This document shows, piece after piece, positions 26,140-64,000 of a DNA stretch of 64,000 bases. Below the pieces are notes generated by a model. It saw nothing but the letters and a program-made list of their open reading frames with translations, did not search any database and was not told the origin of the DNA. Within the stretch, counting starts at the first letter, position 1; each line of letters begins with the position of its first letter. A program made the position numbers and the translations under genes. The DNA comes from Kiritimatiellia bacterium (GTDB lineage: Bacteria; Verrucomicrobiota; Kiritimatiellia; RFP12; UBA1067), in contig JAFWKK010000042.1 of the NCBI GenBank assembly GCA_017514235.1, positions 73,483 through 137,482 of the forward strand. Reading direction: 5' to 3'.

Positions 26140-26247
26140 GTCGGCGTTACTTGATTTTGGCCGCTGACTTTAGTAAACTAGCCTCATTACTCACAGTGGC
26201 TTTTGTCGTTGAGCGGAAATCTGTGTGGAAACAAGAAGACAAAAATC

Positions 26248-28416
26248 ATGAGCGTAAGAAAATCTCTGGTTGCGGTGGCGGCGATGTCAATGTCGCTTGC
26301 GGCGAACGCTTCGGTTTTTAACGTGCTGGAATTCGGCGCGAAGGGCGACGGCGTTGCCAAGGACACCGCTGCCGTGCAAAAGGCGGTCGATGCGGCGAAT
26401 GCGGCGGGCGGCGGCGAGGTGCTGTTGCCGAAGGGCACGTATCTCTGCGGCTCCGTGTTCCTCAAGAGCGGAGTGGATTTCCACCTTGCCGACGGCGCGG
26501 TGCTGAAGGGCAGCCCGGAGCCGGCCGACTACAATGCGGTCGATGTCGCGCCGCAGAACAGCGGACGGCTCGGCGCTGGCGACAACGCCAGCGGCGGACA
26601 TCTCCTTCTTTGCATCGAGCAGAAGGACGTGACGTTGCGCGGCCCCGGCAAGATCGACGGGAACTCTGGCGCGTTCCTGAAGATGCCGGACGGCTCGCAC
26701 CCGAAGAGCAAGCTGGAGATACCGTGGCGTCCCTCGCAGATGGTGTGGTTCGTGGAATCGCAGAACGTCGCGATCCGCGACATCGAGCTTGCTGACGCGC
26801 CGTACTGGAGCTGCTTCGTCTACGGTTGCGAGGACGTGACGGTGGAACGCGCAAACATACACACCGTCCGTAAGCCGCACACTTACAACGGCGACGGGCT
26901 GGACATCGATTCCTCGCGTCGCGTGCGCGTGACGGGCTGCACCATATCCACCGCCGACGACTCCATCACGCTCCGCGCCGACGGCGCACGGCTCAAGCGC
27001 GCCGGCGACTGCGCGGAGGTGACGGTCTCAAACTGCACGTTCTCGTCGGACTGCAACGCAATCCGTCTCGGCGTCGGCAACGGACGCATTCGCGACTGCT
27101 CGTTCGGCGACATCCGGATCGAGAACACGCGCTACGCGGTGAACGCCGTAGGCGCGTGGTCGCGTCCTGAGCATGGCGCGGACATCTCGCGCATCTCGTT
27201 TGAGAACATGGAGATTGACGCGAAGGGATTCTGCAAGTTCTACTACAAGATGGCGACGGAAAGCGTGTTTGACGGCATCACCTTCCGGCACGTGCGCGGC
27301 AAGGTGCGCGAGCCGTCGATTTTCGACGACACTCCGACTCGTCCGTTCCGGAACCTGCGTTTCGAAGACGTCAGGCTTGACGGCGAAACGAGTTCTAGGG
27401 TCAAGGCGCCGTCGACGGCGGAAAGTGTTGCCGTTGCGTTGACCAACGGTACGGCCTTTCTGCTGTCCCGGCAGGCCGAGGACGGGCACTGGAGCGATCC
27501 GCAGATGCCGGCGCTGACGGCGCTGCCGCTGTGGGCACTGACCTGCGCGGGCGCCGCTGACGCCGCCGAGTCGTGCCGCCGCGCCGCCGCGTTCGTGCTT
27601 TCCACCCAGCGTCCCGACGGCGGCTTCTACGTGCCGAAGCCAGGGCGCGGCGGCTCGGGGCTCGGCAACTACAACACGTCCGTCTGCCTCGCAGCGCTTT
27701 TCGACTCGGGACTTGCGCCGAAGTCCGCGATGCTTCGCGCGCGCGCGTACATAGCCTCCTCTCAGCTGACCGGCGACGACACGATGGCAGGAGGCTTCGG
27801 ATACGACAAGGTTTCGCGGCGCCGATACGCCGACCTCTCCAACACCGCCTACGCGATGGACGCGATGGCCAGGACCGCGTCGCTCGAGGAGCTTCGCTCC
27901 GACGGCAGCGCACGCGCCGACCTTGACTGGGAAAAGGCGCTGAAGTTCATCGACGGACTGATGGAGAAGGACGGACCCGATGCCGGCGGCGCGGCATACA
28001 ACGAACGGACGCCTCAGGCCGGCACGTCAACCAACGCGCAGGGACGCGTCCATCTCCGCGCCTACGGGTCAATGACCTACGCCGCCGTCCTTTCGATGTG
28101 CGCGGCGAAGCTCGACAGGGGCGACCCGCGCGTGCGGCAGTCGCTGGAGTACCTGGCGACTAACTGGACCGTTGACGAGAACCCCGGGATGGGAAGCCAG
28201 GGGCTGTACTACTTTTACGACATCATGGCGAGGGCGCTTTCCGCCGCCAAGGTGGACGAGGTAGGCGGCCATGCCTGGCGGAAGGAGCTTGCGGCGAAGG
28301 TCGTCTCGCTTCAGAAGCCGGACGGCAGCTGGAGCAACGACAACAACCGCTTCTGGGAGGCTGATCCTGTTCTTTGCACGTCGTTTGCGATGATCGTGCT
28401 CGCCCTCTGCCGCTGA
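26248..28416 (+). CDS. secreted GH28-like / pectin-lyase-fold beta-helix protein fused to C-terminal alpha/alpha-toroid (prenyltransferase/squalene-cyclase-like repeat) domain
   Basis: signal peptide MSVRKSLVAVAAMSMSLAANA; FNVLEFGAKGDGVAKDTAAVQKAVDAA is the classic GH28/pectate-lyase-superfamily start; C-terminal half has repeated QxxDGGF / DGSWS motifs. Confidence 0.6.
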   Translation: MSVRKSLVAVAAMSMSLAANASVFNVLEFGAKGDGVAKDTAAVQKAVDAANAAGGGEVLLPKGTYLCGSVFLKSGVDFHLADGAVLKGSPEPADYNAVDVAPQNSGRLGAGDNASGGHLLLCIEQKDVTLRGPGKIDGNSGAFLKMPDGSHPKSKLEIPWRPSQMVWFVESQNVAIRDIELADAPYWSCFVYGCEDVTVERANIHTVRKPHTYNGDGLDIDSSRRVRVTGCTISTADDSITLRADGARLKRAGDCAEVTVSNCTFSSDCNAIRLGVGNGRIRDCSFGDIRIENTRYAVNAVGAWSRPEHGADISRISFENMEIDAKGFCKFYYKMATESVFDGITFRHVRGKVREPSIFDDTPTRPFRNLRFEDVRLDGETSSRVKAPSTAESVAVALTNGTAFLLSRQAEDGHWSDPQMPALTALPLWALTCAGAADAAESCRRAAAFVLSTQRPDGGFYVPKPGRGGSGLGNYNTSVCLAALFDSGLAPKSAMLRARAYIASSQLTGDDTMAGGFGYDKVSRRRYADLSNTAYAMDAMARTASLEELRSDGSARADLDWEKALKFIDGLMEKDGPDAGGAAYNERTPQAGTSTNAQGRVHLRAYGSMTYAAVLSMCAAKLDRGDPRVRQSLEYLATNWTVDENPGMGSQGLYYFYDIMARALSAAKVDEVGGHAWRKELAAKVVSLQKPDGSWSNDNNRFWEADPVLCTSFAMIVLALCR

Positions 28417-28599
28417 AGCCTCCGCCACCGCCGTGTCGTTTAGACCTTCGGTCGCGGCAGATGCGGCGCGGCACGAAAGCGGGTCTAAAGCCCGACACGA
28501 AAAATCCCACGTTTCGCCTCCATTTCGCGAGATTTCGTGTACCGCGAAGGCGGTTTTTGTGTCCTGCGTACGGCGCACCCTGAAAGGGGCGGCGGTTGC

Positions 28600-28639
28600 G
28601 GCGCGACTGGCGAGGCGACGCCTCGGGCCAGGTCGCGCC
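28600..28639 (+). other. GC-rich near-perfect hairpin in the intergenic region downstream of the GH28-like gene
   Basis: GGCGCGACTGGCGAGGCG-A-CGCCTCGGGCCAGGTCGCGCC; no T-tract, so not a canonical intrinsic terminator. Confidence 0.3.
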
Positions 28640-28750
28640 GCAATCGCCGTACGTTGCCGCATGGCAACGCGCCGTTCGCAGGCGTTCGTGGTCGCGCGTA
28701 GCGCAATCATTCCACAATCGAGCATCATATTACTTGGAGTGACCTCCCCC

Positions 28751-28780
28751 TTGACTTGATGTAACCAATAGGTTAAAATA
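28751..28780 (+). promoter_or_regulatory. sigma70-like promoter TTGACT-N18-TAAAAT at the island boundary
   Basis: clean -35/-10 pair in an AT-rich stretch, pointing into the first four-helix-bundle element. Confidence 0.45.
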
Positions 28781-28834
28781 CGCGTCAGACGGTTCGGATG
28801 ATAGTCATGTCATCTATGGACAAAATAGCTATTG

Positions 28835-28872
28835 TGAGGTATTCGGCTGCATACCCCACGGGCGCGGAGCGT
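28835..28872 (+). repeat. 38-nt conserved leader motif, copy 1 (identical to 45029-45066)
   Basis: TGAGGTATTCGGCTGCATACCCCACGGGCGCGGAGCGT, exact match to copy 2; contains the small hairpin GGTAT-TCGGCTGC-ATACC. Confidence 0.85.
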
Positions 28873-28874
28873 AT

Positions 28875-28932
28875 GCTTAGTTGGAGGTAGGAGTTGGAGT
28901 TGGAGGTAGGAGTTGGAGGTAGGAGTTGGAGG
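28875..28932 (+). repeat. purine-rich tandem array (unit about TTGGAGGTAGGAG, about 4 copies) upstream of four-helix-bundle gene 1
   Basis: direct repeats read from the sequence; roughly complementary to the array at 29305-29435. Confidence 0.85.
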
Positions 28933-29304
28933 ATGGAGGGGCAGGATTTTCAGTACAGGAATTTGATTGTGTGGCAAAAGGCCATGCGGTTCTCTAAAGC
29001 CGTTTATGCGCTGATCAATCAATTCCCCGTAGCAGAGAAGTATGCGCTTTCTGATCAGGTTCGTCGTGCGGCAGTGAGTGTTCCTAGCAACATTGCGGAA
29101 GGATGTGGACGCGCCTCAAATCGTGACTATGCTCATTTCCTGTCGATCGCACGTGGTTCATTGTATGAAACAATGACACAGCTGGAATTGGCACAATCGC
29201 TTGGATACATTGATGCTATCAAAGATATCGAAGAGTTGGCCTCGGAGATAAGTCGTATGCTAACAACATTGATGAAGAAATACACGCCGCTCTCCAAATC
29301 CTAA
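28933..29304 (+). CDS. four-helix-bundle protein (23S rRNA intervening-sequence protein / Avd-like family), copy 1
   Basis: IVWQKAMRFSKAVYALINQFP..EKYALSDQVRRAAVSVPSNIAEGCGRASNRDYAHFLSIARGSLYE..TQLELA is the hallmark of this family; the ORF track extends the start into the repeat array via TTG, and I prefer the ATG at 28933. Confidence 0.8.
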   Translation: MEGQDFQYRNLIVWQKAMRFSKAVYALINQFPVAEKYALSDQVRRAAVSVPSNIAEGCGRASNRDYAHFLSIARGSLYETMTQLELAQSLGYIDAIKDIEELASEISRMLTTLMKKYTPLSKS

Positions 29305-29435
29305 CTCTACCTCTCCCCTCCAACTCCACCTCTCCCCTCCAACTCCACCTCTCCCCTCCAACTCCACCTCTCCCCTCCAACTCCAACTCTCTCCTCCAAC
29401 TCCAACTCCAACTCTTTTCTCCAACTCATCTCCCC
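29305..29435 (+). repeat. pyrimidine-rich tandem array (unit about CTCCACCTCTCCCCTCCAA, about 4 copies, then CTCCAACTC variants) downstream of four-helix-bundle gene 1
   Basis: direct repeats; reverse-complement related to the upstream array (TTGGAGG versus CCTCCAA). Confidence 0.85.
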
Positions 29436-29687
29436 TTGAACACAATTGACCATATCGGCTCCGCGTTCTTGCGCCGTATCCTCCGCCGCATGAAGGAGAT
29501 GGGCGTGTCGCAGACGGAGCTTGCCAAGCGCATGAAGGTGTCCCGTCCGTATGTCACGAAGGTGCTGCACCGAGACGTGAACTTCTCGTTCAAGACGGCG
29601 GCTCGGCTTGCGGATGCGCTAAAGATGGACTTCTTTCCGGAGCTGCGTCCCAAGGAAGGTTCTTCGGTGCCCGATGAGGGCAAGTAA
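29436..29687 (+). CDS. XRE-family helix-turn-helix transcriptional regulator
   Basis: GVSQTELAKRMKVSRPYVTKVL is an HTH_XRE motif; the true start is probably an internal ATG near 29490, since the track start is TTG. Confidence 0.55.
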   Translation: MNTIDHIGSAFLRRILRRMKEMGVSQTELAKRMKVSRPYVTKVLHRDVNFSFKTAARLADALKMDFFPELRPKEGSSVPDEGK

Positions 29688-29717
29688 TACAAACCAAAAA
29701 AGAAAAGGAGAATAACA

Positions 29718-29945
29718 ATGAAGTCATTCCTGTTCGCCAATGTGCCGCTGAGCGCGGTGCATTTCATCCTGTTCTTGATCTTCAAGGGCAGTTTCCTCGG
29801 ACAGCCAGGCTATGCCGTCGCCAATGCGCTCGGTGCGGCGTCAGGCGGCGTCATCTGGTGGCTGATCATGGTCGTCAACTCCCTCGTCTGGGGTGCCGTC
29901 CTCTCCCTCTTCGTCTTTCCGCTCATCCGCAAGATTCTGAAGTAA
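29718..29945 (+). CDS. small two-TM membrane protein
   Basis: AAAAGGAGAATAACA-ATG ribosome-binding site; two hydrophobic helices; no family recognised. Confidence 0.4.
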   Translation: MKSFLFANVPLSAVHFILFLIFKGSFLGQPGYAVANALGAASGGVIWWLIMVVNSLVWGAVLSLFVFPLIRKILK

Positions 29946-30000
29946 GCCCAGTGGTGTGTGCAGAATTTGCACATGCCACTATTCACGGTGCTGTTATCTG

Positions 30001-30054
30001 AAGAGTGTCCAATATCACCAACTCACTAACTCACCAACTCCCCCACTTCTATCC
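30001..30054 (+). repeat. orphan pyrimidine-rich short repeats (CCAACTCA-type) directly upstream of the wzx-1 start
   Basis: CACCAACTCACTAACTCACCAACTCCCCCACTTCTATCC-ATG; same flavour as the downstream arrays of the four-helix-bundle elements. Confidence 0.5.
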
Positions 30055-31608
30055 ATGTCCCCGAATCGCAGGATATTCCTGAACATCGTTGCCACGTACG
30101 GACGGAGTCTGTACACGCTGGTGGTAGGATTGTTCTGCGGTCGGTGGACGCTGATGGCGCTGGGGGAGGTCGATTACGGACTCATGGGAGTCGTTGGCGG
30201 ACTGATTGCCTTCGTGCAGTATTTCGACAGCATCTTGGCGAGTGCAATCGGAAGGTTCTTCGCCATTGCGGTCGGCGAAGGGAAGGCCGACCGGAAATCA
30301 GGCATTGAATCCGGCCGCAAGTGGTTCACTACAGCGGTGGTGATCCAAACGGCATTGCCGACTTTTCTTCTCATAACGTTCTATCCGGTCGGGGAGTGGG
30401 CCGTCAGGCATTTTCTGACGATTCCGCCGGACAGGGTTCAGGCGTGCGTGTGGGTGTGGAGATTCGTGTGCCTGTCAGGATATTTAGGCATGCTGACGAT
30501 GCCGTTCCGTTCCATGTACATGGCGCATCAATATATTGCGGAGCTTACATTTTATTCTTTTATGACTACTACGTTTAACGCCTGTTTTCTCTATTACATG
30601 GTAACGCATCCCGGCGTTTGGCTGGCCAAGTTCGCGTTCTGGCAATGTCTGCTTTCGATGTTGCCCGAATTGATCATCGCAATTAGGGCATATTTCCTTT
30701 TTCCGGAATGCAGAGTGGTAAGGCGGCACATTAGATGCTGGTGCAACATCAGGGCGATGGCGGGTTTTTCGCTGTGGACGGCAATCGGTACGCTGGGTGT
30801 CATTCTCCGCGGGCAGGGAATATCCATTCTCGTCAACAAGATTTATGGCTCGCGAGTCAATGCCGGCGTAGCGGTCGGTTATTCGCTTTCTAATCATTGC
30901 AACTCATTGACGGATAGCATGTTCAACGTATTTTCCCCTGCCATCTACAACGCCTGGGGTGAGAAAAATTACGACAAGGCGCGCAGCATGGCCTACCAGA
31001 TATGCAGGGTCGGCACGTTGTTTCTTCTTGTTTTCGCGCTTCCGCTTTCACTGGAAGTTGACGAGGTGCTGCGATTGTGGCTTAAGAATCCCCCGCAATA
31101 TGCCGCTGGGATCTTTCTTTTTGTCATGGCGTCAACGGTAATCGACAAGATGGCGGCCGGCCACATGATATGTGTCAGTGCCAGCGGCAAGGTCGCCGGA
31201 TACCAATCGTTTCTTGGCACGACGCTGATTTTGACGTTGCCGCTCGCATGGTTGCTTGTAAAGCTCGGCATGGGCGTATATTCCGTGGGTTGGGCGCTGG
31301 TGGCGACGATGGCGGTTTGTTCTTCGGGGCGGATTTGGTTCGCGAGACGGCTTGTAGGCATGAGCGGACGATACTGGATACGGAGTGTCGTCGTCCCGCT
31401 TTCGGGGGTTGTCGTTCTGTCTCTTTGCGTGGGGTCCTTGCCTCGATTTTTTCTGTCGGCCTCCCTTGCGAGAGTCTGTTTCACGGTGGGGGTCGTCGAA
31501 TTTTTCATGATTCCATTTTCATGGTTCTTCGTCTTGAGCGGCTCCGAGCGCGCTTTTGTGGTGTCGAGGGTTAATGCTGTCGTTTCAAAAATGAGGAGAA
31601 CGTGCTAA
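30055..31608 (+). CDS. polysaccharide biosynthesis protein / Wzx-like flippase (MOP superfamily), paralog 1
   Basis: about 14 predicted TM helices; N-terminal 60 aa nearly identical to the paralog at 35171. Confidence 0.65.
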   Translation: MSPNRRIFLNIVATYGRSLYTLVVGLFCGRWTLMALGEVDYGLMGVVGGLIAFVQYFDSILASAIGRFFAIAVGEGKADRKSGIESGRKWFTTAVVIQTALPTFLLITFYPVGEWAVRHFLTIPPDRVQACVWVWRFVCLSGYLGMLTMPFRSMYMAHQYIAELTFYSFMTTTFNACFLYYMVTHPGVWLAKFAFWQCLLSMLPELIIAIRAYFLFPECRVVRRHIRCWCNIRAMAGFSLWTAIGTLGVILRGQGISILVNKIYGSRVNAGVAVGYSLSNHCNSLTDSMFNVFSPAIYNAWGEKNYDKARSMAYQICRVGTLFLLVFALPLSLEVDEVLRLWLKNPPQYAAGIFLFVMASTVIDKMAAGHMICVSASGKVAGYQSFLGTTLILTLPLAWLLVKLGMGVYSVGWALVATMAVCSSGRIWFARRLVGMSGRYWIRSVVVPLSGVVVLSLCVGSLPRFFLSASLARVCFTVGVVEFFMIPFSWFFVLSGSERAFVVSRVNAVVSKMRRTC

Positions 31609-43703: not shown

Positions 43704-44864
43704 ATGGGCATAAAAAGAAAGTTGAAAGATGCCGAAGGCAGTTATTTCTTATTCGGTCCGCGTGGAACGGGCAAGACGACCTGGCTCGATGAAAATCTAT
43801 CAGATGCCATTCGGATATCGCTGCTTGACGCTGCAACTAAGCGGGAGCTTCGATCTTATCCCGAACGACTGGAGAATTATATAGGCGGAGCAAAAGACAA
43901 GACGGTTGTTATTGACGAGGTGCAGCGCGCGCCTGAACTGTTGAGTGTCGTTCATCGCCTCATGGATGAAAAACGCGGGTTGAGGTTTGTGATGACTGGA
44001 TCCAGTGCCCGCAAGCTCAAGCGAAACGCTTCTGCCGATTTGCTTGCCGGACGGGCTATAAAGAGGATGTGCCACCCGTTTCTGGCATCGGAGATGGGCG
44101 AAGCATTCCGGCTGGAGGAGGCTTTGCGACTTGGCATGATACCCTTGGTTCGCTATCCTGAAAGTGGTACAAGCGAAGATGTGCTCAAGACGTATCTCGA
44201 TTTGTATCTTGAAGAGGAAATCACGACAGAGGGTGTGATTCGAAACCTTGACTCGTTCTCGAGGTTCTTGCAAGTGGCAAGCTTCTCGCACGGAAGCGTT
44301 CTGTCGGCAAGTTCCATTGCTCGTGAATCCGGCATAAAACGTTCCACGATCGACTCGTATTTTGACGTCTTGGAGGAAATGCTTGTCGCGTCCAGACTGC
44401 CGGTGTTCAACAAAAGAGCCAAGCGTCAGTTGATAGGGCACGACAAATTCTATTTTTTCGATACTGGAGTGTTTAGGTCGCTTCGTCCCAAAGGGCCACT
44501 GGACAATCCAAATGAGATTGACGGCGTGAGTCTTGAAGGCTTGGTTTATCAGCAGCTGAAAGCATGGAACGATTACCTTGTCGAGCCTAATTCACTGTAT
44601 TTCTGGCGAACGAAGAACGGCGTCGAGGTTGATTTTGTCGTTTACGGCGAGAACACGTTTTTTGCGCTGGAAGTGAAGAACTCCTGCTATGCGGAGCGCA
44701 AAGATGCGCAGTCGCTCGAATCGTTCGTTTCCGATTATCCGGAAGCACAAGCATTGCTCCTCTACCGAGGGGGGCAGGTTCAGCAAGTTTCGCCGCATGT
44801 TAAGGTGATGCCCGTTGAAGAGTTCCTGCTGGGACTTGATCCTTCAAAACCTTTGCACTTTTGA
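43704..44864 (+). CDS. ATP-binding protein (AAA domain plus DUF4143-type C-terminus)
   Basis: Walker A FGPRGTGKTT, Walker B VVIDEVQ; architecture of the common AAA_14/DUF4143 proteins. Confidence 0.65.
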   Translation: MGIKRKLKDAEGSYFLFGPRGTGKTTWLDENLSDAIRISLLDAATKRELRSYPERLENYIGGAKDKTVVIDEVQRAPELLSVVHRLMDEKRGLRFVMTGSSARKLKRNASADLLAGRAIKRMCHPFLASEMGEAFRLEEALRLGMIPLVRYPESGTSEDVLKTYLDLYLEEEITTEGVIRNLDSFSRFLQVASFSHGSVLSASSIARESGIKRSTIDSYFDVLEEMLVASRLPVFNKRAKRQLIGHDKFYFFDTGVFRSLRPKGPLDNPNEIDGVSLEGLVYQQLKAWNDYLVEPNSLYFWRTKNGVEVDFVVYGENTFFALEVKNSCYAERKDAQSLESFVSDYPEAQALLLYRGGQVQQVSPHVKVMPVEEFLLGLDPSKPLHF

Positions 44865-44972
44865 GTGGAAGAGTGGGGGATTTTGAGCCGTGACGGGGAA
44901 ATCTGCGCCGCGATTCCGTGCGTCGCTTCCGCCCGGTGGTTCGAGAATTGATTCACATGGCGCGGGAAAAAA

Positions 44973-44981
44973 TGGTATAAT
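44973..44981 (+). promoter_or_regulatory. extended -10 TGGTATAAT upstream of four-helix-bundle element 2
   Basis: about 45 nt upstream of the conserved 38-nt leader. Confidence 0.45.
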
Positions 44982-45028: not shown

Positions 45029-45066
45029 TGAGGTATTCGGCTGCATACCCCACGGGCGCGGAGCGT
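45029..45066 (+). repeat. 38-nt conserved leader motif, copy 2
   Basis: exact match to 28835-28872. Confidence 0.85.
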
Positions 45067-45104: not shown

Positions 45105-45461
45105 GTGGTTAAGACTTATAAAGAGTTAGTGGCTTGGCAAAAGGGGATGTCGCTTGTGAAAGCCGTCTATGCTTTAGTGAAACGGTTCCCAAAAGTTGAG
45201 CAATATCGACTTGTTGACCAGTTGACGCGTGCTGCAGTCAGTGTGCCATCTAACATTGCAGAGGGATTCGGTAGGGCTACCAACAAAGATTTCGCACACT
45301 TCCTGTCGCAGGCTCGAGGCTCGCTGTTTGAAGTAGAGACGCAGTTGTTGATAGCAAAGGATCTTGGATTTGTTGGTGATGTAACGTCAGAGCTTGAACT
45401 ATCTTCCGAACTTGGGAAGATCCTAAATGGTCTCATACGTAAACTACTCCCTGTCCCCTAA
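45105..45461 (+). CDS. four-helix-bundle protein (23S rRNA IVS protein / Avd-like family), copy 2
   Basis: LVAWQKGMSLVKAVYALVKRFPKVEQYRLVDQLTRAAVSVPSNIAEGFGRATNKDFAHFLSQARGSLFEVETQL; GTG start. Confidence 0.8.
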   Translation: MVKTYKELVAWQKGMSLVKAVYALVKRFPKVEQYRLVDQLTRAAVSVPSNIAEGFGRATNKDFAHFLSQARGSLFEVETQLLIAKDLGFVGDVTSELELSSELGKILNGLIRKLLPVP

Positions 45462-45497
45462 CTCCTGACTCCTGTCTCCTGACTCCTGCCCCCTAAA
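45462..45497 (+). repeat. pyrimidine-rich short array (CTCCTGACTCCTGTCTCCTGACTCCTGCCCC) downstream of four-helix-bundle gene 2 and directly before the GT2 start
   Basis: seen directly. Confidence 0.6.
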
Positions 45498-46535
45498 ATG
45501 CCTTTCTTCTCCATCATCATCCCGGTCTACAATGTCGCGCCCTATCTGCGCGAGTGCTTGGACTCTGTCTTGGCGCAGTCATTTGCAGATTGGGAAGCGA
45601 TCTGTGTCGATGACGGTTCGACTGATGATTCAGGCGCGATTCTAGATGAATATGCGGCGAAGGATCCGCGCTTTCATGTTATCCATCAGCAAAATGCAGG
45701 TGTCAGCGCCGCAAGAAACAAGGCGCTTGAAGTCGTTGCAGGGAAATGGTTTCTTTTTCTGGATGGTGATGATTTACTTTATAGCGATGCTCTGGAAGTT
45801 TTTATTCCATATATAAGATATGATGATGTTGATGGGATTCTTGTGCATCCATATACTTCTTCTTGGGATGGGAATGGTGTCCCACAACGAAATTGTGTTG
45901 TCGATGTTCTTGTGAAAGATGCTTCAAAGGAAGATTTATTCATAGGACCGTATGCGGCAAATGGTTTTTCATTTTCGCGTATTTATTCCACAAGAATATT
46001 TAGGCACTTACGTTTTAGGGAAGACATGTCCATGTCGGAAGATGTTTGTTTTTGGTTTGATGCTTTAAGCGTTACTGCGCGGTGGATGATATTGCGTGCG
46101 GAATATTATCTTTATCGTCAACGGGGCGATTCTGTGTGTGGGGAAAACGATCCACATAAATGCGGACAGATTCTGGAATCCGTTTTACATGCGCTTAATG
46201 TAATTGACAAACGGCTTGATGTTTCTAAATCTGCTGGAGCTAGATATTTGAGGCGTTTCCCGTCGTCTCCAAGATATTATATTGGTCTTGCCGTATGCAG
46301 ATATAAAGAACTTACTGATGAGGAATGGGATGATTTGTCGAATAAAGTAAAAGCCATTGATGCTATATGTGGGCGATGGTCATTGGGTGTTTTTGTCAAT
46401 TTATTAATGGCGTTTGCGGTAAATAGACGATTGCGTTTCGTGCTGCCAATATTGCTAAGAATGAGTAATTGCTATGATTGTCTGAGAATTCAAGTTGGTG
46501 GATTGTCACGAAAATTAGGTTTTATAAGAAGATGA
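45498..46535 (+). CDS. family 2 glycosyltransferase (conserved 5' module)
   Basis: FSIIIPVYNVAPYLRECLDSVLAQSFADWEAICVDDGSTDDS. Confidence 0.8.
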   Translation: MPFFSIIIPVYNVAPYLRECLDSVLAQSFADWEAICVDDGSTDDSGAILDEYAAKDPRFHVIHQQNAGVSAARNKALEVVAGKWFLFLDGDDLLYSDALEVFIPYIRYDDVDGILVHPYTSSWDGNGVPQRNCVVDVLVKDASKEDLFIGPYAANGFSFSRIYSTRIFRHLRFREDMSMSEDVCFWFDALSVTARWMILRAEYYLYRQRGDSVCGENDPHKCGQILESVLHALNVIDKRLDVSKSAGARYLRRFPSSPRYYIGLAVCRYKELTDEEWDDLSNKVKAIDAICGRWSLGVFVNLLMAFAVNRRLRFVLPILLRMSNCYDCLRIQVGGLSRKLGFIRR

Positions 46536-47275: not shown

Positions 47276-48343
47276 ATGAAGAGACTGTTGGAGATATCTG
47301 AATATGTTGAGGATGTGAAGCGTGTCGCATCTTTCGATTTGCCGTGGGAGAAACTACGTGATAAGACAATTCTCATAACGGGTGGCACGGGTCTTATCGG
47401 AAGCTTTTTGGTCGATGTGTTAAATGCTGCAAGACTTGATTGCAAGGTATTGTTATTTGGTCGGTCAGAAGAAAGGGCGAAAACTCGTTTCGCTGAATAC
47501 TGGGATAAGGGGTGGATTCATTTTGTGAAGTGGGATTCGAGTGAGGGGTTTGAGAGGTTTGACGAGTTTGAAGAGTTTGAGAAGTTCGATTATATGTTGC
47601 ACCTTGCCAGCAATACACATCCAGTGGCGTACGCAACGGATCCGATTGGCACGATAACGACGAATGTTATTGCGCTCAATAATCTGCTGGCGTTGGCGGC
47701 GGAGAAGTGTGCGACGAGGTTCTTGTTCGCATCTTCAAATGAAATTTACGGAGAGAATCGGGGGGATGTGGAGCTGTTTGATGAGAAGTACTGTGGTTAC
47801 ATAGATTGCAACACGTTGCGGGCAGGGTATCCAGAGTCAAAGCGTTGTGGCGAAGCATTATGTCAGGCGTACATAAGGCAAAAGAACTTGGATTGCGTCA
47901 TTGCGCGTTTGACTCGCACTTATGGACCAACGATTCTGTCGACTGACACCAAGGCCATTAGCCAGTTCTTCAACAACGCACTCAAAGACGAAGACATTGT
48001 CTTGAAGAGCGAAGGGAAGCAATATTATTCTTATCAATATGTTGTAGATTCGGTGTCGGGCCTCATGACTGTGTTGCTTAAGGGTGACTGCGGTGCTGCG
48101 TACAATATCGCCGATGAATCCAGCGACATTACGCTTCGCGATCTTGCCGCGTTGATCGCCAAGCAAGCTGGGCGCAAGGTTGTGTTTGATCTGCCTGATG
48201 CGGTTGAAGCTGCAGGTTTCAGCAAGGCTACAAAGGCTAGGCTGGATGGTGCTCGGTTGCGTGCGCTTGGCTGGTTGCCATCATATGACATTAAAAGCGG
48301 TGTGATGCGAAATTATTGTGTGCTTAAGAAATCTCGGGCATGA
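47276..48343 (+). CDS. NAD-dependent epimerase/dehydratase (extended SDR)
   Basis: ILITGGTGLIGSFLV Rossmann motif and a YxxxK region; about 355 aa. Confidence 0.75.
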   Translation: MKRLLEISEYVEDVKRVASFDLPWEKLRDKTILITGGTGLIGSFLVDVLNAARLDCKVLLFGRSEERAKTRFAEYWDKGWIHFVKWDSSEGFERFDEFEEFEKFDYMLHLASNTHPVAYATDPIGTITTNVIALNNLLALAAEKCATRFLFASSNEIYGENRGDVELFDEKYCGYIDCNTLRAGYPESKRCGEALCQAYIRQKNLDCVIARLTRTYGPTILSTDTKAISQFFNNALKDEDIVLKSEGKQYYSYQYVVDSVSGLMTVLLKGDCGAAYNIADESSDITLRDLAALIAKQAGRKVVFDLPDAVEAAGFSKATKARLDGARLRALGWLPSYDIKSGVMRNYCVLKKSRA

Positions 48344-59574: not shown

Positions 59575-60867
59575 ATGTTTCGTAGGGTAATTTATCAGGC
59601 AAAGTGGCGCTTGCATCATCCGACGGCGTTCGCACGGTTTGCCGATATTATGGCGAATCTCGAGAAGTCGTCTGGCCAGCTTGCTGCCGAACAGGAAGTG
59701 GCACGGCAGAGAATAGTTCGCCATGCGATGGCCCATACTGTTTTTTACAGGGAGAAATATACGGACGCGGGCTTTGGGTTGTCCGACATCGGCAGACAGG
59801 GGTGGTTCGAGAAGTTGCCGATAGTGACTAAGAATGACCTTCGCGAACGCTTCGCCGATTTCGTCGATACAGATCGGCGGCAGTTCTTGGCTGTCTCGAC
59901 TACCGGCGGTTCTACGGGTGTGCCCACCAAGACAGGCTACGACAGGCGCATTCCCGAAGAAGTTTATTCATGGCGGCTCCAGTCGTGCTACGGCGTCCAT
60001 CCTTGGGACGACCATGCATACGTGTGGCGGGATACGCGGCGTTCGAAGTGGGCGAAGTTGAAGAATGCCGCCGCATGGTGGCCGACGCGCCACCTGAAAC
60101 TCGATGCCACGTTGCTGAGCGACGCTGCGATGGATGAATTTATTGAGAAGTTCAATCGTCTGAAGCCTTGCCTGCTGCAGGGATATGTGGGCGCAGTTTC
60201 GCAGCTTGCGGAATATATGCTCAAGTCAGGCAAGGCCATTGCCTTGTCACCGAAAGTCGTATGGACCACCTCGGCCCCTCTGTCGGAAGTTCAGAGACGC
60301 CTGATTGAGACGGCTTTTGGCGCTCCGGTGTGCGATGAGTACGGTAGCTGCGAGTGCCGCTGGATAGCCTTTCAGCGGCCTGGGCATGAAGGATTGCGCG
60401 TCAATACGGAGCATGTGCATATAGAGTTTTTGCCAGACCAGGGCGGAGATGGGCATGGATATGGTCGGACGCTTTTGACCAATCTTGAAGATACGGTTTT
60501 TCCATTGATCCGCTACGAGAACGGCGACCGTGGCCGTTGGCTTGACTATCCCTACATTGATTCGGTAAAGGGACGGGAAGTGGAGTCGTTTGTCCTCACG
60601 TCGGGGAAAGTGGTCAACGGCGAATACCTCACAACGATCTTCGACGAGTCGCCGGATTTGGTGTATGGCTTTAGGGCCGTACAGCATGCGGATCTTAGCA
60701 TAACGATCGAGTACATTCCGGCGAAGGATGAGGGCAAGGTGCTGGAAGTCCTGCAGAAATTCGCGGACAAGATCGAAGGCGACGCCGTCGTTGACTTCAA
60801 ACGCGTCGACCAAATCTCGCATGACAGAGGCAAGCTTCGCTTTGTAGTGCGGGAAGTGAAAGGTTGA
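59575..60867 (+). CDS. CapK-like adenylate-forming enzyme (phenylacetate-CoA ligase / F390 synthetase family)
   Basis: length and motif pattern (STTGGSTGVPT adenylation motif, C-terminal region) of PaaK/CapK-like proteins in capsule loci. Confidence 0.6.
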   Translation: MFRRVIYQAKWRLHHPTAFARFADIMANLEKSSGQLAAEQEVARQRIVRHAMAHTVFYREKYTDAGFGLSDIGRQGWFEKLPIVTKNDLRERFADFVDTDRRQFLAVSTTGGSTGVPTKTGYDRRIPEEVYSWRLQSCYGVHPWDDHAYVWRDTRRSKWAKLKNAAAWWPTRHLKLDATLLSDAAMDEFIEKFNRLKPCLLQGYVGAVSQLAEYMLKSGKAIALSPKVVWTTSAPLSEVQRRLIETAFGAPVCDEYGSCECRWIAFQRPGHEGLRVNTEHVHIEFLPDQGGDGHGYGRTLLTNLEDTVFPLIRYENGDRGRWLDYPYIDSVKGREVESFVLTSGKVVNGEYLTTIFDESPDLVYGFRAVQHADLSITIEYIPAKDEGKVLEVLQKFADKIEGDAVVDFKRVDQISHDRGKLRFVVREVKG

Positions 60868-60931
60868 GAGGTTCGAGAGGTTTGGGCGGTTTGAGAAGTT
60901 CGAAAGTTCGAGAGTTTGAAAGTTTGAGAGT
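60868..60931 (+). repeat. purine-rich tandem array (GTTYGAGAG units) upstream of four-helix-bundle gene 3
   Basis: GTTGAGAGGTTCGAGAGGTTTGGGCGGTTTGAGAAGTTCGAAAGTTCGAGAGTTTGAAAGTTTGAGAGT; begins at the stop codon of the CapK-like gene. Confidence 0.8.
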
Positions 60932-61457: not shown

Positions 61458-62921
61458 ATGTTCTCACACCTTTACGATCGCAAGTATCTTTTTAAATGCC
61501 TTTTGTCTATGGCGTTTCTTTTTGGCCTTATGAAGGCGACGGGCGGGTCGGGCTTTGTAATCGTTATCCCAATGGTTTTTTATGGATTGCTGTCCCGCAA
61601 GACGGAGTCGCTTTTCTTCTGGCTTCTGATGTCAGTATGTGCAATTATAGCTAATGGTTATGTGATCCCTAAAAATGCGGTGTTTGCCTGGTCGCAGCGT
61701 GGTCTGATGTTGAGTTTAGGTGTTTGTATGGCCTTGAATGTAATGGCATACCCTAAGCATGCCGTCATGAAACCATATCTTGGAATTATATTCTATATTG
61801 TATTTATGTTTTTCTCTTCTGCACAGGGGTGGTGCCCGCCTATTTCCTTCTTGAAGTTGATTTTGTTCACCGTTATTTATTTCTCTTATTTTGGGGTGGC
61901 GAATCAGGTTGGCATTAATCCAACTGTTTCGAGCAAACATGTGCGCAGTGTAATGCTAGCGGTCTCTCTCCTTTTTGTGGTAGGATCGATCTTGCTTGTT
62001 CCGTTCCCAGGCTTGTCGCAGATGAAGCATGACGACTTTGTTGACAGTCCTCTTGCAACAAGCCTTTTTATGGGAATGACCAACCATTCTCAGTGCCTTG
62101 GGCCGGTTGTATCGTCGATCTCAATTGTGGTCTTTGCTGATCTTCTATTTTCTGTTAGGAAATGGGATCCCCTTTATCTTTTCATCTTGTTTTGTTGCCC
62201 CTATCTTATCTACAAGACATCGAGTCGAACGGGCATGGGTGCCTATGTGCTTGGCATGATGTTTGTGGCGTATATTTTCATGCGTGCGCGGGGTGTAGGG
62301 TCGCGATGGAAATCGCGAGCCTTGACGACGGTAATGATATTTTCATGTGGATTGATTCTTGTTTTAGCATGTTTGCCAAGGGTCCAGAAATCGGCACTGC
62401 GATTTCTGTTGAAGACGACCAGCGAAAGCCCGTCTGCCGTAACAGCAGAAGCGGTGATGAGTACGCGGCAGGCACTTATCGACAGGTCACTTTACTATTT
62501 CCGAAAGAAACCTCTCTTGGGGAATGGTTTTCAAGTGTCGGAAGAGATGTCTAGCCTGAAGTTAAAGGGCGTTGCTTCTGTTTTGTCAGCTCCGATTGAG
62601 AAAGGCGTATGGGTTTCAGCAGTGTTGGAGGAAGGAGGCATCATAGGATGGTTGCTTTTTGTTTGGTTTCTTGTGGTCTGTATCATCACGTCAATCAAGC
62701 GACGAGCCTATATTGGAGCGTCATGCCTTTTTCTGAGCATGCTTACAAATCTTGGAGAATTCACGTTCTTCTCTATGTCATACACTGGTGGTTTCACATG
62801 GGCGATGGTTTTTGTAGGCCTTGCGCTTGACATTAGGAAAATGAAGGATGAGAATGCGGCCATCCAGCGTGAAATGATGATGCGTGAGATGCGAATGCAG
62901 CAAGGAGGGGTCGGCAGGTGA
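61458..62921 (+). CDS. O-antigen polymerase/ligase-like (Wzy/WaaL-type) membrane protein
   Basis: about 10-12 TM helices and a large periplasmic loop; start taken at the ATG after the repeat array, since the ORF track begins inside the repeats. Confidence 0.55.
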   Translation: MFSHLYDRKYLFKCLLSMAFLFGLMKATGGSGFVIVIPMVFYGLLSRKTESLFFWLLMSVCAIIANGYVIPKNAVFAWSQRGLMLSLGVCMALNVMAYPKHAVMKPYLGIIFYIVFMFFSSAQGWCPPISFLKLILFTVIYFSYFGVANQVGINPTVSSKHVRSVMLAVSLLFVVGSILLVPFPGLSQMKHDDFVDSPLATSLFMGMTNHSQCLGPVVSSISIVVFADLLFSVRKWDPLYLFILFCCPYLIYKTSSRTGMGAYVLGMMFVAYIFMRARGVGSRWKSRALTTVMIFSCGLILVLACLPRVQKSALRFLLKTTSESPSAVTAEAVMSTRQALIDRSLYYFRKKPLLGNGFQVSEEMSSLKLKGVASVLSAPIEKGVWVSAVLEEGGIIGWLLFVWFLVVCIITSIKRRAYIGASCLFLSMLTNLGEFTFFSMSYTGGFTWAMVFVGLALDIRKMKDENAAIQREMMMREMRMQQGGVGR

Positions 62922-64000
62922 AGGTCCTGCACGTCATCTCATCTATTCATCGTTCGTCCGGCGGGCCGTCAAGGTCGGTTCAGGGACTGGCGGCCGCAGA
63001 GTGCCGCGCAGGCGTAGATGCCGGAATCTTCACGTTCCGGCATGGCGACAAGCCGTGGGTGGACGGCATTTCGTTCGTTCATTCAGGGGTGGAGATAGAT
63101 TCTGAACTGCTGGAGTTCAAGCCAGACATTGTGCATCTGCACGGACTGTGGAATCGCAGGCTTCATCGTGCTGCGGTCGCTTGCCGAAAGTTGGGGGTTC
63201 CGTATGTCATTGCGCCGCGAGGGATGCTTGAGCCGTGGAGCCTGAAGCAGAAGTGGCTCAAGAAACGGATTGCTCGATTCCTTTACCAGGATAGGGATCT
63301 GCGGTGCGCCGCAGCGCTCCATGCCACGGCAGAGAGCGAAGCGGAGCAGTTTAGGCGCATGGGGTTCAAGAATCCAGTAATCATCAGCCCCAATGGCGTC
63401 AATCCTCCCAACCTCCCACCCACTCTCCCACTCCAACTCAAACCTCCAACTCAAAATCTCCAACTCCAACTAAAAACTCCAACTAACACTAACCTCCAAC
63501 TCCCACTCAAAACTCCAACTCAAACCCTCCAACTCCAACTCAAGACTCCAACTAATACTAAAAGAACCTTGTTCGTGAGCCGGATGCATCCGAAGAAGGG
63601 TGTGATGGAGCTGGTCGAGGCCTGGGGAAGTTTAGTGGCTAGTGCTGAGTGGTTGGTGCGGAACGGTTGGAAGTGTGAGTTGGTGTATACGGTTAGCGGG
63701 GAACTTGAGAAGGGGTATGAGGCGAAGGTAAAGGCGAGGGTTAAGGAGCTGGGGCTGGAGGATAAGTTCATATTTACCGGCGCGCTGAATGACGACGAGA
63801 AGTGGGAGGCGTATGCGAGAGCGGACCTGTTCGTGCTGCCGACCTACAGCGAGAACTTTGGAATAGTGGTTGCCGAGGCGCTTTATGCCGGCGTGCCGGT
63901 AATCACCACAAAGGGCACTCCCTGGCAGGAACTGGAGACCGAGAGTTGCGGTTGGTGGATTGACGTTGGAGAGGATGCGTTGGCTGATGCTTTGACAAAG
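62918..64000 (+). CDS. family 4 glycosyltransferase, 3'-partial, with in-frame repeat insertion
   Basis: GTG start overlapping the upstream stop (GTGA); KVLHVISSIHRSSGGPSRSV...; C-terminal GT4 motifs EXFG (YSENFGIVVAEALYAGVPVI); runs off the window end, so it is absent from the ORF track. Confidence 0.75.
   Translation, partial: MKVLHVISSIHRSSGGPSRSVQGLAAAECRAGVDAGIFTFRHGDKPWVDGISFVHSGVEIDSELLEFKPDIVHLHGLWNRRLHRAAVACRKLGVPYVIAPRGMLEPWSLKQKWLKKRIARFLYQDRDLRCAAALHATAESEAEQFRRMGFKNPVIISPNGVNPPNLPPTLPLQLKPPTQNLQLQLKTPTNTNLQLPLKTPTQTLQLQLKTPTNTKRTLFVSRMHPKKGVMELVEAWGSLVASAEWLVRNGWKCELVYTVSGELEKGYEAKVKARVKELGLEDKFIFTGALNDDEKWEAYARADLFVLPTYSENFGIVVAEALYAGVPVITTKGTPWQELETESCGWWIDVGEDALADALTK
63404..63575 (+). 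repeat. pyrimidine-rich CTCCAACTC-type tandem array embedded in-frame in the GT4 gene
   Basis: translates in the GT4 frame as NLPPTLPLQLKPPTQNLQLQLKTPTNTNLQLPLKTPTQTLQLQLKTPTNTK without stops, between the ISPNGVN and KRTLFVSRMHPKKG domain-boundary motifs. Confidence 0.8.

Follow-up and report, generated by a model that had tools for sequence, protein, structure and literature searches.

Why should a small gene of the protein family best known from intervening sequences (IVSs) of 23S rRNA lie between two mutually complementary tandem arrays, in a protein-coding polysaccharide locus? We addressed this question in a stretch of 64,000 nt of a Kiritimatiellia bacterium contig (JAFWKK010000042.1), hereafter the window, in which such an intervening-sequence protein (IVP) gene and its two arrays form what we call element 1. 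With a confidence only slightly above even, we view element 1 as a copy of a widespread IVS-type cassette that is carried in mRNA and whose stem is probably processed by RNase III.

A preliminary description of this DNA had assigned the open reading frame (ORF) to an "Avd / 23S-IVS" four-helix-bundle family. The search against profile hidden Markov models (HMMs) that it proposed strongly matched both PF05635 (23S_rRNA_IVP; E 8.9e-40, 135.6 bits for a cutoff of 33.8) and TIGR02436 (E 1.5e-39, 134.6 bits for a cutoff of 24), far above the cutoffs. The gene call starting at ATG 28933 corresponds exactly to a protein called on five metagenome contigs. The modelled fold agrees with the family assignment. 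Indeed, an AlphaFold model (predicted local distance difference test, pLDDT, 88.6) contains four helices, and its best structural match in Foldseek is XCC0516 (PDB 2GSC; template modelling (TM) score 0.86-0.90, 43% identity), which is also a sequence match (E 2.7e-23). BT_0352 (2RLD) superposes on the model as well, with a TM score of about 0.77. The RxxxSxxxNxxE motif, a conserved motif of the IVP family (PMC3936711), is present, and its residues R45, S49, N53 and E56 are invariant in the family alignment. In comparisons with close homologues, the ratio of nonsynonymous to synonymous substitution rates (dN/dS) is 0.06-0.09, with dS of 0.85-2.2; silent sites are near saturation, yet the TTGGAG/CTCCAA array type is kept in this lineage. 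The IVP protein is thus under purifying selection and must do something.

The Avd half of the label did not hold. Avd of Bordetella phage BPP-1 (PDB 4DWL, 8UBE) has the same four-helix-bundle fold as the element 1 protein (TM 0.72-0.80), and bAvd, the NCBIfam Avd model and the PHROG Avd family each give a weak profile match. However, sequence identity to Avd is only about 12%, and the Avd equivalog NF033474 scores 26 bits for a cutoff of 80. In addition, no reverse transcriptase, transposase or integrase is found among the neighbouring genes annotated with Pfam, and the annotated gene context contains no template repeat or variable repeat of a diversity-generating retroelement (DGR). A true Avd or DGR component was therefore rejected. 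A component of a defence system was rejected too, as none of the three IVP proteins of the window (see below) matches any anti-phage defence model in PADLOC.

The two arrays flanking the gene had been described as a GGAGG-rich direct-repeat array immediately upstream and a CCTCC-rich array downstream, its approximate reverse complement. Tandem Repeats Finder recovers both, at 28879-28939 (13- and 19-nt units, GGAGTTGGAGGTA plus a 19-mer, 100% matches) and at 29290-29414 (19-nt unit AACTCCACCTCTCCCCTCC x5.6, 96% matches); in the latter, CTCCAA units come after the 19-nt units. The 5' arm contains 37 G and 1 C in 73 nt, the 3' arm 67 C and no G in 119 nt, and five GGAGG motifs in the upstream array face five CCTCC motifs in the downstream one. 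The arms close tightly on the gene: its ATG lies within the 5' arm, preceded at 7 nt by a likely Shine-Dalgarno (SD) sequence (GGAG), and its last codons and stop codon overlap the start of the 3' arm.

Folding bore out the earlier proposal that the arrays pair and leave the ORF in the loop. The predicted arm-versus-arm duplex reaches -103.3 kcal/mol with 63 pairs, compared with a mean of -74.3 (sd 4.1) and a best value of -90.5 in 500 dinucleotide shuffles of each arm (z = -7.0). Because none of the 500 shuffles reaches the observed energy, the complementarity is real and goes beyond an effect of composition. In the minimum-free-energy fold of the whole element (-211.5 kcal/mol, z = -4.5), the arrays likewise pair with the ORF in the loop. 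The array also varies between near-identical strains: the 19-mer is present in the 3' array in 2 (locus L003), 3 (L001) or 4 (window) copies, on contigs that otherwise differ at 1-2 bases in 10.7-20.4 kb. The array is thus the main difference between these strains, with short-read collapse as a possible cause.

Element 1 is not alone in the window. A tblastn search with its ORF revealed two IVP paralogues, each within a cassette of its own (elements 2 and 3; coordinates in the table below). PF05635 is also assigned to the element 2 protein by precomputed Pfam annotation on locus L087, and with a family HMM built here the paralogues score 4.8e-43 to 6.4e-48, element 3 giving 4.8e-43. The three cassettes use three unrelated repeat units, and arm complementarity is kept in each. 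The arm duplexes reach -56.3 kcal/mol in element 2 (z -3.5) and -93.4 kcal/mol in element 3 (z -8.3), values reached by 0/500 shuffles in both cases. Element 3 fills its intergenic spacer exactly: its 5' arm contains the stop codon of the upstream gene (60865-60867) as well as the IVP ATG, and a Wzy-like gene begins at 61458, 8 nt past the 3' arm. Next after the 3' arm of element 2, a glycosyltransferase gene of family GT2 begins at 45498.

The array-ORF-array architecture recurs in species-representative genomes. Our survey comprised 80 loci with IVP homologues of 42-55% identity, which are the best matches among the first 600 pattern matches and not a random sample. They span Verrucomicrobia, Acidobacteriota, Planctomycetes, Bacteroidota, Clostridia, Proteobacteria and other groups. 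For the analysis of flanks, 77 IVP genes from these loci were combined with the three window elements (n = 80), and a signal was defined as 8-mers at 5 or more positions of the 150-nt upstream flank that recur as reverse complements in the 150 nt downstream of the gene. Such inverted matching flanks surround 50/80 IVP genes compared with 5/131 control ORFs of the same loci (Mann-Whitney p = 2e-16), and mismatched flank pairs have on average 0.6 inverted 8-mer positions. Tandem arrays are 15-fold denser in the flank zones of IVP genes than elsewhere in the loci (2.67 versus 0.17 per kb). The period is 7 in 47 of the 71 flank arrays, and 14 or 21 in most of the others. Typical arms measure about 34 nt; the median distance is 42 nt from the end of the 5' arm to the start codon and 5 nt from the stop codon to the beginning of the 3' arm. 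The units vary by locus (GGTGCAG, GGGAAGA, TTAGTCA, CAGTGAT, AAGCCTTA, GTGACAA and others), each with its complement beyond the gene. Hence, the resemblance of the element 1 arrays to SD and anti-SD sequences, also pointed out earlier, is incidental at the level of the family, since other cassettes use unrelated units (GGTTTGAGA, TTAGTCA, CAGTGAT). The sole general property of the arrays across the family is a G-rich 5' arm.

The layout is also found in 19/31 IVP genes on viral or prophage contigs. On cyanobacterial plasmids (L217, L218), heptamer arrays flank IVP genes, one of them between cas6 and cas4 in Anabaena sp. 90, and IVP genes interspersed in cas operons have been reported (PMC3936711). 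None of the 80 genome loci contains any of seven conserved 23S motifs in a crude exact-match search, so that a setting outside rRNA is apparently the usual one for the IVP family. Some further observations were made on these homologues. In five Flavobacterium loci (L070, L078, L040, L044, L061), an AT-rich conserved spacer between the 5' array and the IVP start holds, by eye, a Bacteroidetes-type promoter-like pattern (TTTG … TAttTTTG), so that the loop of some cassettes may contain a promoter of their own. The closest homologues (75-90% identity) mostly lie on contigs of only 500-1000 bp, as if the arrays regularly broke short-read assemblies. Several homologue gene calls run into the array, which yields …SNSNS C-termini.

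Two strand asymmetries characterize the family. By a longest-frame heuristic, the IVP gene is co-directional with neighbours that themselves point the same way in 52 cases and opposed to them in 4 (p = 1e-11). The 5' arm contains more G than C in 39 cassettes and fewer in 6 (p = 5e-7). Neither bias would be needed for symmetric DNA ends, and both fit a unit that is read within a host transcript.

Moreover, the two arms of a cassette co-evolve. Some survey loci are orthologous, with the same flanking genes, and among these a change of unit in one arm is matched in the other. Three Flavobacterium species have GGTTCAGAG...CTCTGAACC where a fourth has GGTTCTGAG...CTCAGAACC; in two Planctomycetes orthologues with 78% protein identity (L051, L062), GGGACGA...TCGTCCC corresponds to GGGACTA...TAGTCCC. 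In pairings of 5' arms with either their own 3' arm or that of a relative, which are not mutually independent, the own arm gives the stronger duplex in 47/58 cases (mean -53.8 versus -45.6 kcal/mol, Wilcoxon p = 2e-6).

The preliminary description had put forward a likeness to rRNA intervening sequences, and this could be examined on a real one. A search of plasmids matched an unannotated stretch of the Azospirillum lipoferum 4B plasmid AZO_p2 (L216) that Rfam identifies as a complete rRNA operon with an IVP ORF within its 23S gene. At the insertion site, the sequence is ACCGAAGCTGCGGATTC / GAGTGGTAGCGGAGCG, which corresponds to 23S helix 45. Its upstream flank consists of purine-rich heptamers (CAGAGGA CGGATGA CAGAGGA CGGAGGA CAGAAAG), its downstream flank of their complement (TCCGTCC TCTGTCT TCTGTCA TCCGTCT TCTGA), and the predicted duplex reaches -79.8 kcal/mol. 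The array, IVP ORF and complementary array are thus all present, with the same anatomy and polarity as in the window cassettes. IVSs with an S23p/IVP ORF are found in 23S genes of Leptospira, Coxiella burnetii, Brucella, Xanthomonas and Azospirillum lipoferum. A study of the Coxiella IVS (PMC4990558) describes a GACAGAT heptamer that shortly precedes the S23p ORF in two or three tandem copies, depending on the strain, and cleavage of the stem by RNase III at the first heptamer repeat; cleavage of the rRNA IVS stem-loop is documented there for Coxiella and others.

Hence, rRNA IVSs and the window cassettes share the protein family, the sense orientation of the ORF in the loop of a stem, short tandem-repeat flanks with a purine- or G-rich 5' arm, and a copy number that varies between strains. 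Several features set them apart. Rfam detects no RNA family at the gathering threshold over the whole window, nor any at E <= 1 over 28700-29500, and the genes flanking element 1 are protein-coding. Element 1 therefore has the complementary flanks that enclose a sense IVP ORF and lacks the insertion into 23S helix 25 or 45, which makes it IVS-like and not an rRNA IVS. The window elements lie in what would be leader or intergenic RNA of a protein-coding operon. Their arms are longer than those of rRNA IVSs (63-73 pairs versus about 35) and unequal in length. The IVP of the window cassettes is under purifying selection, whereas Coxiella S23p is argued to decay and not to be made (PMC4990558). 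Finally, cleavage by RNase III is established for rRNA IVSs alone, and the window elements are predicted double-stranded RNA, with 63 pairs in element 1.

Taken together, these data suggest the following scheme. The cassette would be a small IVP gene held in the loop of a long stem, the arms of which are a G-rich upstream array and a complementary C-rich downstream array, and the stem would close tightly around the ORF. With no evident promoter of its own, it would be co-transcribed with the host genes around it, in sense orientation, here in 5' leaders (elements 1 and 2) or an intergenic spacer (element 3) and, elsewhere, in housekeeping operons, cas operons and 23S helix 45. Once transcribed, the 3' array would pair in vivo with the 5' array and give a double-stranded RNA of 35 to about 70 bp that RNase III could cut, as it does in rRNA intervening sequences. 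Cleavage would excise the loop that bears the ORF and split the upstream from the downstream RNA, with a possible effect on the polysaccharide genes. Because the start codon lies in the stem, translation of the IVP would compete with stem formation. Because tandem units can pair in many registers, the stem should survive gains and losses of units by slippage. Overall, the cassette would be a self-contained, probably selfish and perhaps mobile module that would tolerate, or profit from, positions at which a cut in the RNA does no harm.

Several results weigh against this scheme. Little or no flank signal is seen in 30/80 homologues, among them an old, widely conserved Bacteroidota locus. The fold of the whole element 2 is no better than that of shuffled sequences (z = -0.96), though its arm duplex is. 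The 52-to-4 orientation count depends on the heuristic mentioned above, and the 58 arm pairings are not independent. We infer the RNA-level action of element 1, its transcription and cleavage included, from analogy with rRNA IVSs. Aligned arms show no excess of G·U-type over A·C-type mismatches (34 versus 29, p = 0.6), and the energies of the sense duplexes are not significantly different from those of the antisense duplexes (p = 0.15). With both tests neutral, copying at the DNA level, for example by template switching, could maintain the complementarity. One alternative takes this further and makes the arrays terminal inverted repeats or recombination substrates of a mobile cassette, or hairpins of single-stranded DNA, the RNA stem being a by-product. 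We consider it unlikely, although the arms are 89% Watson-Crick paired with transversion mismatches as common as transitions, array copy number is unstable between strains, cassettes occur on viral and prophage contigs with matching flanks, and similar IVP genes and array types occur in different contexts (L022/L046/L065; L027/L080). However, the repeat unit differs in each copy, even within one genome, so that no single transposase could recognise common ends, and no transposase or integrase adjoins the cassettes in the Pfam context. Moreover, the orientation bias and arm polarity would be needless for symmetric ends, and the same architecture is known in rRNA as an RNase III substrate (PMC4990558). 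In the element 1 lineage, the homology between four contexts has both its limits within the arrays, the upstream array at one end and the downstream array at the other; the three contexts of the TTGGAG lineage may all come from a single ancestral locus, and this lineage thus gives no firm evidence of mobility. The arrays were rejected as recombination breakpoints: between L092 and L094, the break falls in a wzx gene fragment, some 90 nt past the array. An exact look-up of neighbouring proteins revealed no empty site and gave only contigs that are near-identical in the compared stretches and still carry the cassette.

Another possibility is that element 1 is a cis-regulatory leader of the host that controls the polysaccharide operon, for example through a masked Rho loading site or through gating by SD and anti-SD sequences, the IVP gene being a passenger. 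Promoter-like boxes and a shared leader motif do precede elements 1 and 2, the 3' array is C-rich and free of G, the IVP start codon is inside the stem, and the arrays contain the GGAGG and CCTCC motifs. We judge this distinctly improbable, because this architecture is also found in spacers of housekeeping and cas genes and in 23S rRNA, with units unlike SD or anti-SD sequences; in addition, element 3 is intergenic and outside any leader, the leader motif also occurs without a cassette, and the IVP gene is under strong purifying selection. A role of the arrays as RNA or DNA binding sites of a pentameric IVP, in autoregulation or in a ribonucleoprotein, would make the complementarity secondary. 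In this respect, we take the distant homologue Avd to be pentameric in the DGR ribonucleoprotein. Avd is part of that reverse-transcriptase particle (PDB 8UBE) and the closer homologue XCC0516 is a homopentamer (PMC4990558). The repeat type follows the IVP lineage, close relatives sharing TTGGAG arrays, and the window IVPs are mildly basic (pI 8.5-9.5). Against this stand the 78%-identical orthologues L051 and L062, which differ in their units, and the fact that binding sites would need neither a reverse-complement partner across the gene nor a tight closure around the ORF; such a role thus seems very unlikely. Lastly, one could suspect that the small gene and unrelated low-complexity microsatellites lie side by side by chance, since perfect (TTGGAG)x4 arrays are common in metagenomes. 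In a scan of 120 such loci, none had an IVP ORF, and 98 had the array within a long open frame, where it encodes a PT/SN linker; (TTGGAG)x4 alone is therefore not diagnostic of a cassette. Chance is nevertheless refuted by the controls: the shuffles of all three elements, the flank statistic of the family, the enrichment of arrays beside IVP genes and the compensatory changes in orthologues.

If the cassette carried in mRNA, which we favour, is as general as the survey suggests, a bolder extension can be stated, to which we give little credence. IVP cassettes would form a class of their own among selfish intervening elements, very widespread and able to colonise any cleavage-tolerant transcribed spacer; their tandem-heptamer stems would renew themselves, and the lone heptamer arrays of cyanobacteria, Xanthomonas and Beggiatoaceae would be their products or remnants. 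The tolerated sites would then be rRNA helices, operon spacers and phage genomes, and the repeat RNA or DNA might be a target of the Avd-like IVP protein, which could, for instance, guide the copying of the repeats or shield them. The lone repeats in question are the short tandemly repeated repetitive (STRR) sequences of cyanobacteria, the GGGAATC-type repeats of Xanthomonas and Nostoc (PMC4692102) and the TAACTGA repeats of Beggiatoaceae (PMC4679880). Like the cassette arrays, they mostly have tandem units of 7 nt, are mostly intergenic, vary in copy number and are oriented relative to the downstream gene. These papers deal with lone direct-repeat arrays and make no mention of IVP genes or of paired inverted arrays. 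Their link with IVP cassettes is a lead and not a result.

A full-text literature search, with most subscription journals outside its coverage, found neither a description of the array-ORF-array module outside rRNA nor a link of heptamer arrays to IVP genes. The papers retrieved treat rRNA IVSs, IVP genes in the vicinity of cas genes and DGRs, and lone heptamer repeats. A known parallel is offered by repetitive extragenic palindromic (REP) sequences and bacterial interspersed mosaic elements (BIMEs), which are intergenic, co-transcribed and structure-forming repeats in operons; in proteobacteria, the RAYT gene is flanked by inverted REP copies. RAYT can be recognised as a tyrosine transposase, whereas no catalytic motif is known in the IVP; and while REPs are palindromic units found throughout a genome, the tandem arrays of each cassette have a sequence of their own. 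Where rRNA IVSs and the S23p/IVP protein come from, and what they are for, has been an open question since the early 1990s, examined in no more than a few rRNA cases. If the module is indeed common in ordinary operons across phyla, there would be thousands of natural variants to compare, and RNase III processing of operon mRNAs at the modules would be a direct and testable prediction. It would also give a first functional context to the abundant annotation 'four helix bundle protein', and maybe to the heptamer tandem repeats of many bacterial genomes. In practical terms, the arrays break short-read assemblies and could serve as hypervariable strain markers.

The features of the three cassettes, and two context features upstream of element 1, are collected in the table.

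Features of the IVP cassettes and of the element 1 upstream region, in window coordinates (TRF, Tandem Repeats Finder)
Feature	Start	End	Strand	Description and evidence
Promoter box, sigma-70-like	28751	28779	+	TTGACT-17-TAAAAT, 10/12 consensus matches; context, outside the cassette
Leader motif, 37 nt	28836	28872	+	GAGGTATTCGGCTGCATACCCCACGGGCGCGGAGCGT; context, outside the cassette
Element 1, 5' arm	28878	28950	+	G-rich tandem array; TRF, duplex mapping, composition
Element 1, IVP gene	28933	29304	+	123 aa; four-helix bundle, 23S_rRNA_IVP / TIGR02436 family
Element 1, 3' arm	29296	29414	+	C-rich, G-free tandem array; TRF, duplex mapping
Element 2, cassette	45060	45493	+	
Element 2, 5' arm	45060	45111	+	GGGGTCAGGGGCCAGAGG type, GGGGTCAGGGG-type repeats; duplex mapping
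Element 2, IVP paralogue	45105	45461	+	118 aa; 56% identical to element 1 (tblastn)
Element 2, 3' arm	45441	45493	+	CCTGACT heptamer array 45457-45488; TRF, duplex
Element 3, cassette	60850	61450	+	
Element 3, 5' arm	60850	60935	+	GGTTTGAGA / AGTTCGAAAG array 60861-60931; TRF, duplex, fold
Element 3, IVP paralogue	60932	61321	+	129 aa; 35% identical to element 1 (tblastn)
Element 3, 3' arm	61320	61450	+	AACTTTCA/AACCTTCA array, about 16 units, 1 G in 131 nt

Pfam annotation of the neighbouring genes agrees with the earlier statement that element 1 lies in a protein-coding polysaccharide locus. Downstream of it, the + strand encodes glycosyltransferases of families GT2, GT4, GT8 and GT25, a Wzy-like protein, pyruvyl transferases, DegT, LicD and an acyltransferase. 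Near element 1 (about 28500-30000), the G+C content falls from about 64% to about 47%, and a strong positive GC skew begins. The polysaccharide locus has the look of an acquired or highly mosaic island, with the element 1 cassette at its start.

Given the promoter box upstream of it, element 1 would sit in the 5' leader of the polysaccharide transcription unit. A similar promoter-like box (44952-44981) precedes element 2. The 37-nt leader motif, located about 50 nt downstream of these boxes, has an exact second copy at 45030-45066, that is, 2 exact copies versus 0 expected in a DNA search. In the related contig L088 (798-822, 2499-2523), the motif follows a promoter-like box and lies ahead of a gene without any IVP cassette. 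For this reason it was rejected as a part of the cassette and is treated as a separate feature. The span of 28835-29440 first given for element 1 therefore contains the cassette, together with a promoter-proximal motif that does not belong to it. This motif, which has no match in Rfam, may serve in the 5' untranslated regions of polysaccharide or accessory transcription units, perhaps as a signal of the antitermination type.

Directly 3' of the element 1 cassette, a small gene of the XRE family with a helix-turn-helix (HTH) domain was observed (29436-29687). The order IVP then HTH is also seen in L088 (1329-1559) and on the NCBI contig that carries P0052, suggesting that IVP and HTH genes recurrently pair up where these loci begin. 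In L092-L095, a truncated 5' fragment of a flippase-like gene (MTPNRRIFLNIVATYGRSLY; compare 29956-31608 in the window) lies about 20-110 nt past the IVP stop. The contigs diverge after this fragment, in what resembles recombination scars of a mosaic locus.

Two coding repeats in the window resemble cassette arrays. The GT4 gene starting at 62921 contains, in frame, an array of CTCCAA type (63400-63560), the same hexamer as in the element 1 3' array; its translation, about 50 aa of low complexity (PTQNLQLQLKTPTNTNLQLPLKTPTQ), links the two Rossmann-like halves of the GT4 glycosyltransferase. The epimerase gene 47276-48343 contains a 9-nt periodic repeat (GAGGTTTGA, 47542-47586) like the element 3 5' array, in frame and encoding EGFERFDEFEEFEKFD, which is probably a coincidental coding sequence. 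In line with the metagenome scan, both are more probably ordinary coding linkers than remnants of cassettes.

Upstream of the island, a 737-aa protein (26203-28416) combines a GH28/pectate-lyase-like beta-helix with squalene-hopene-cyclase-type repeats, an unusual fusion, and its gene is followed by a terminator-like hairpin (28541-28554). Within the polysaccharide locus, the AAA_14/DUF4143 ATPase gene at 43704-44864, located just before the promoter-like box of element 2, looks out of place in the pathway.

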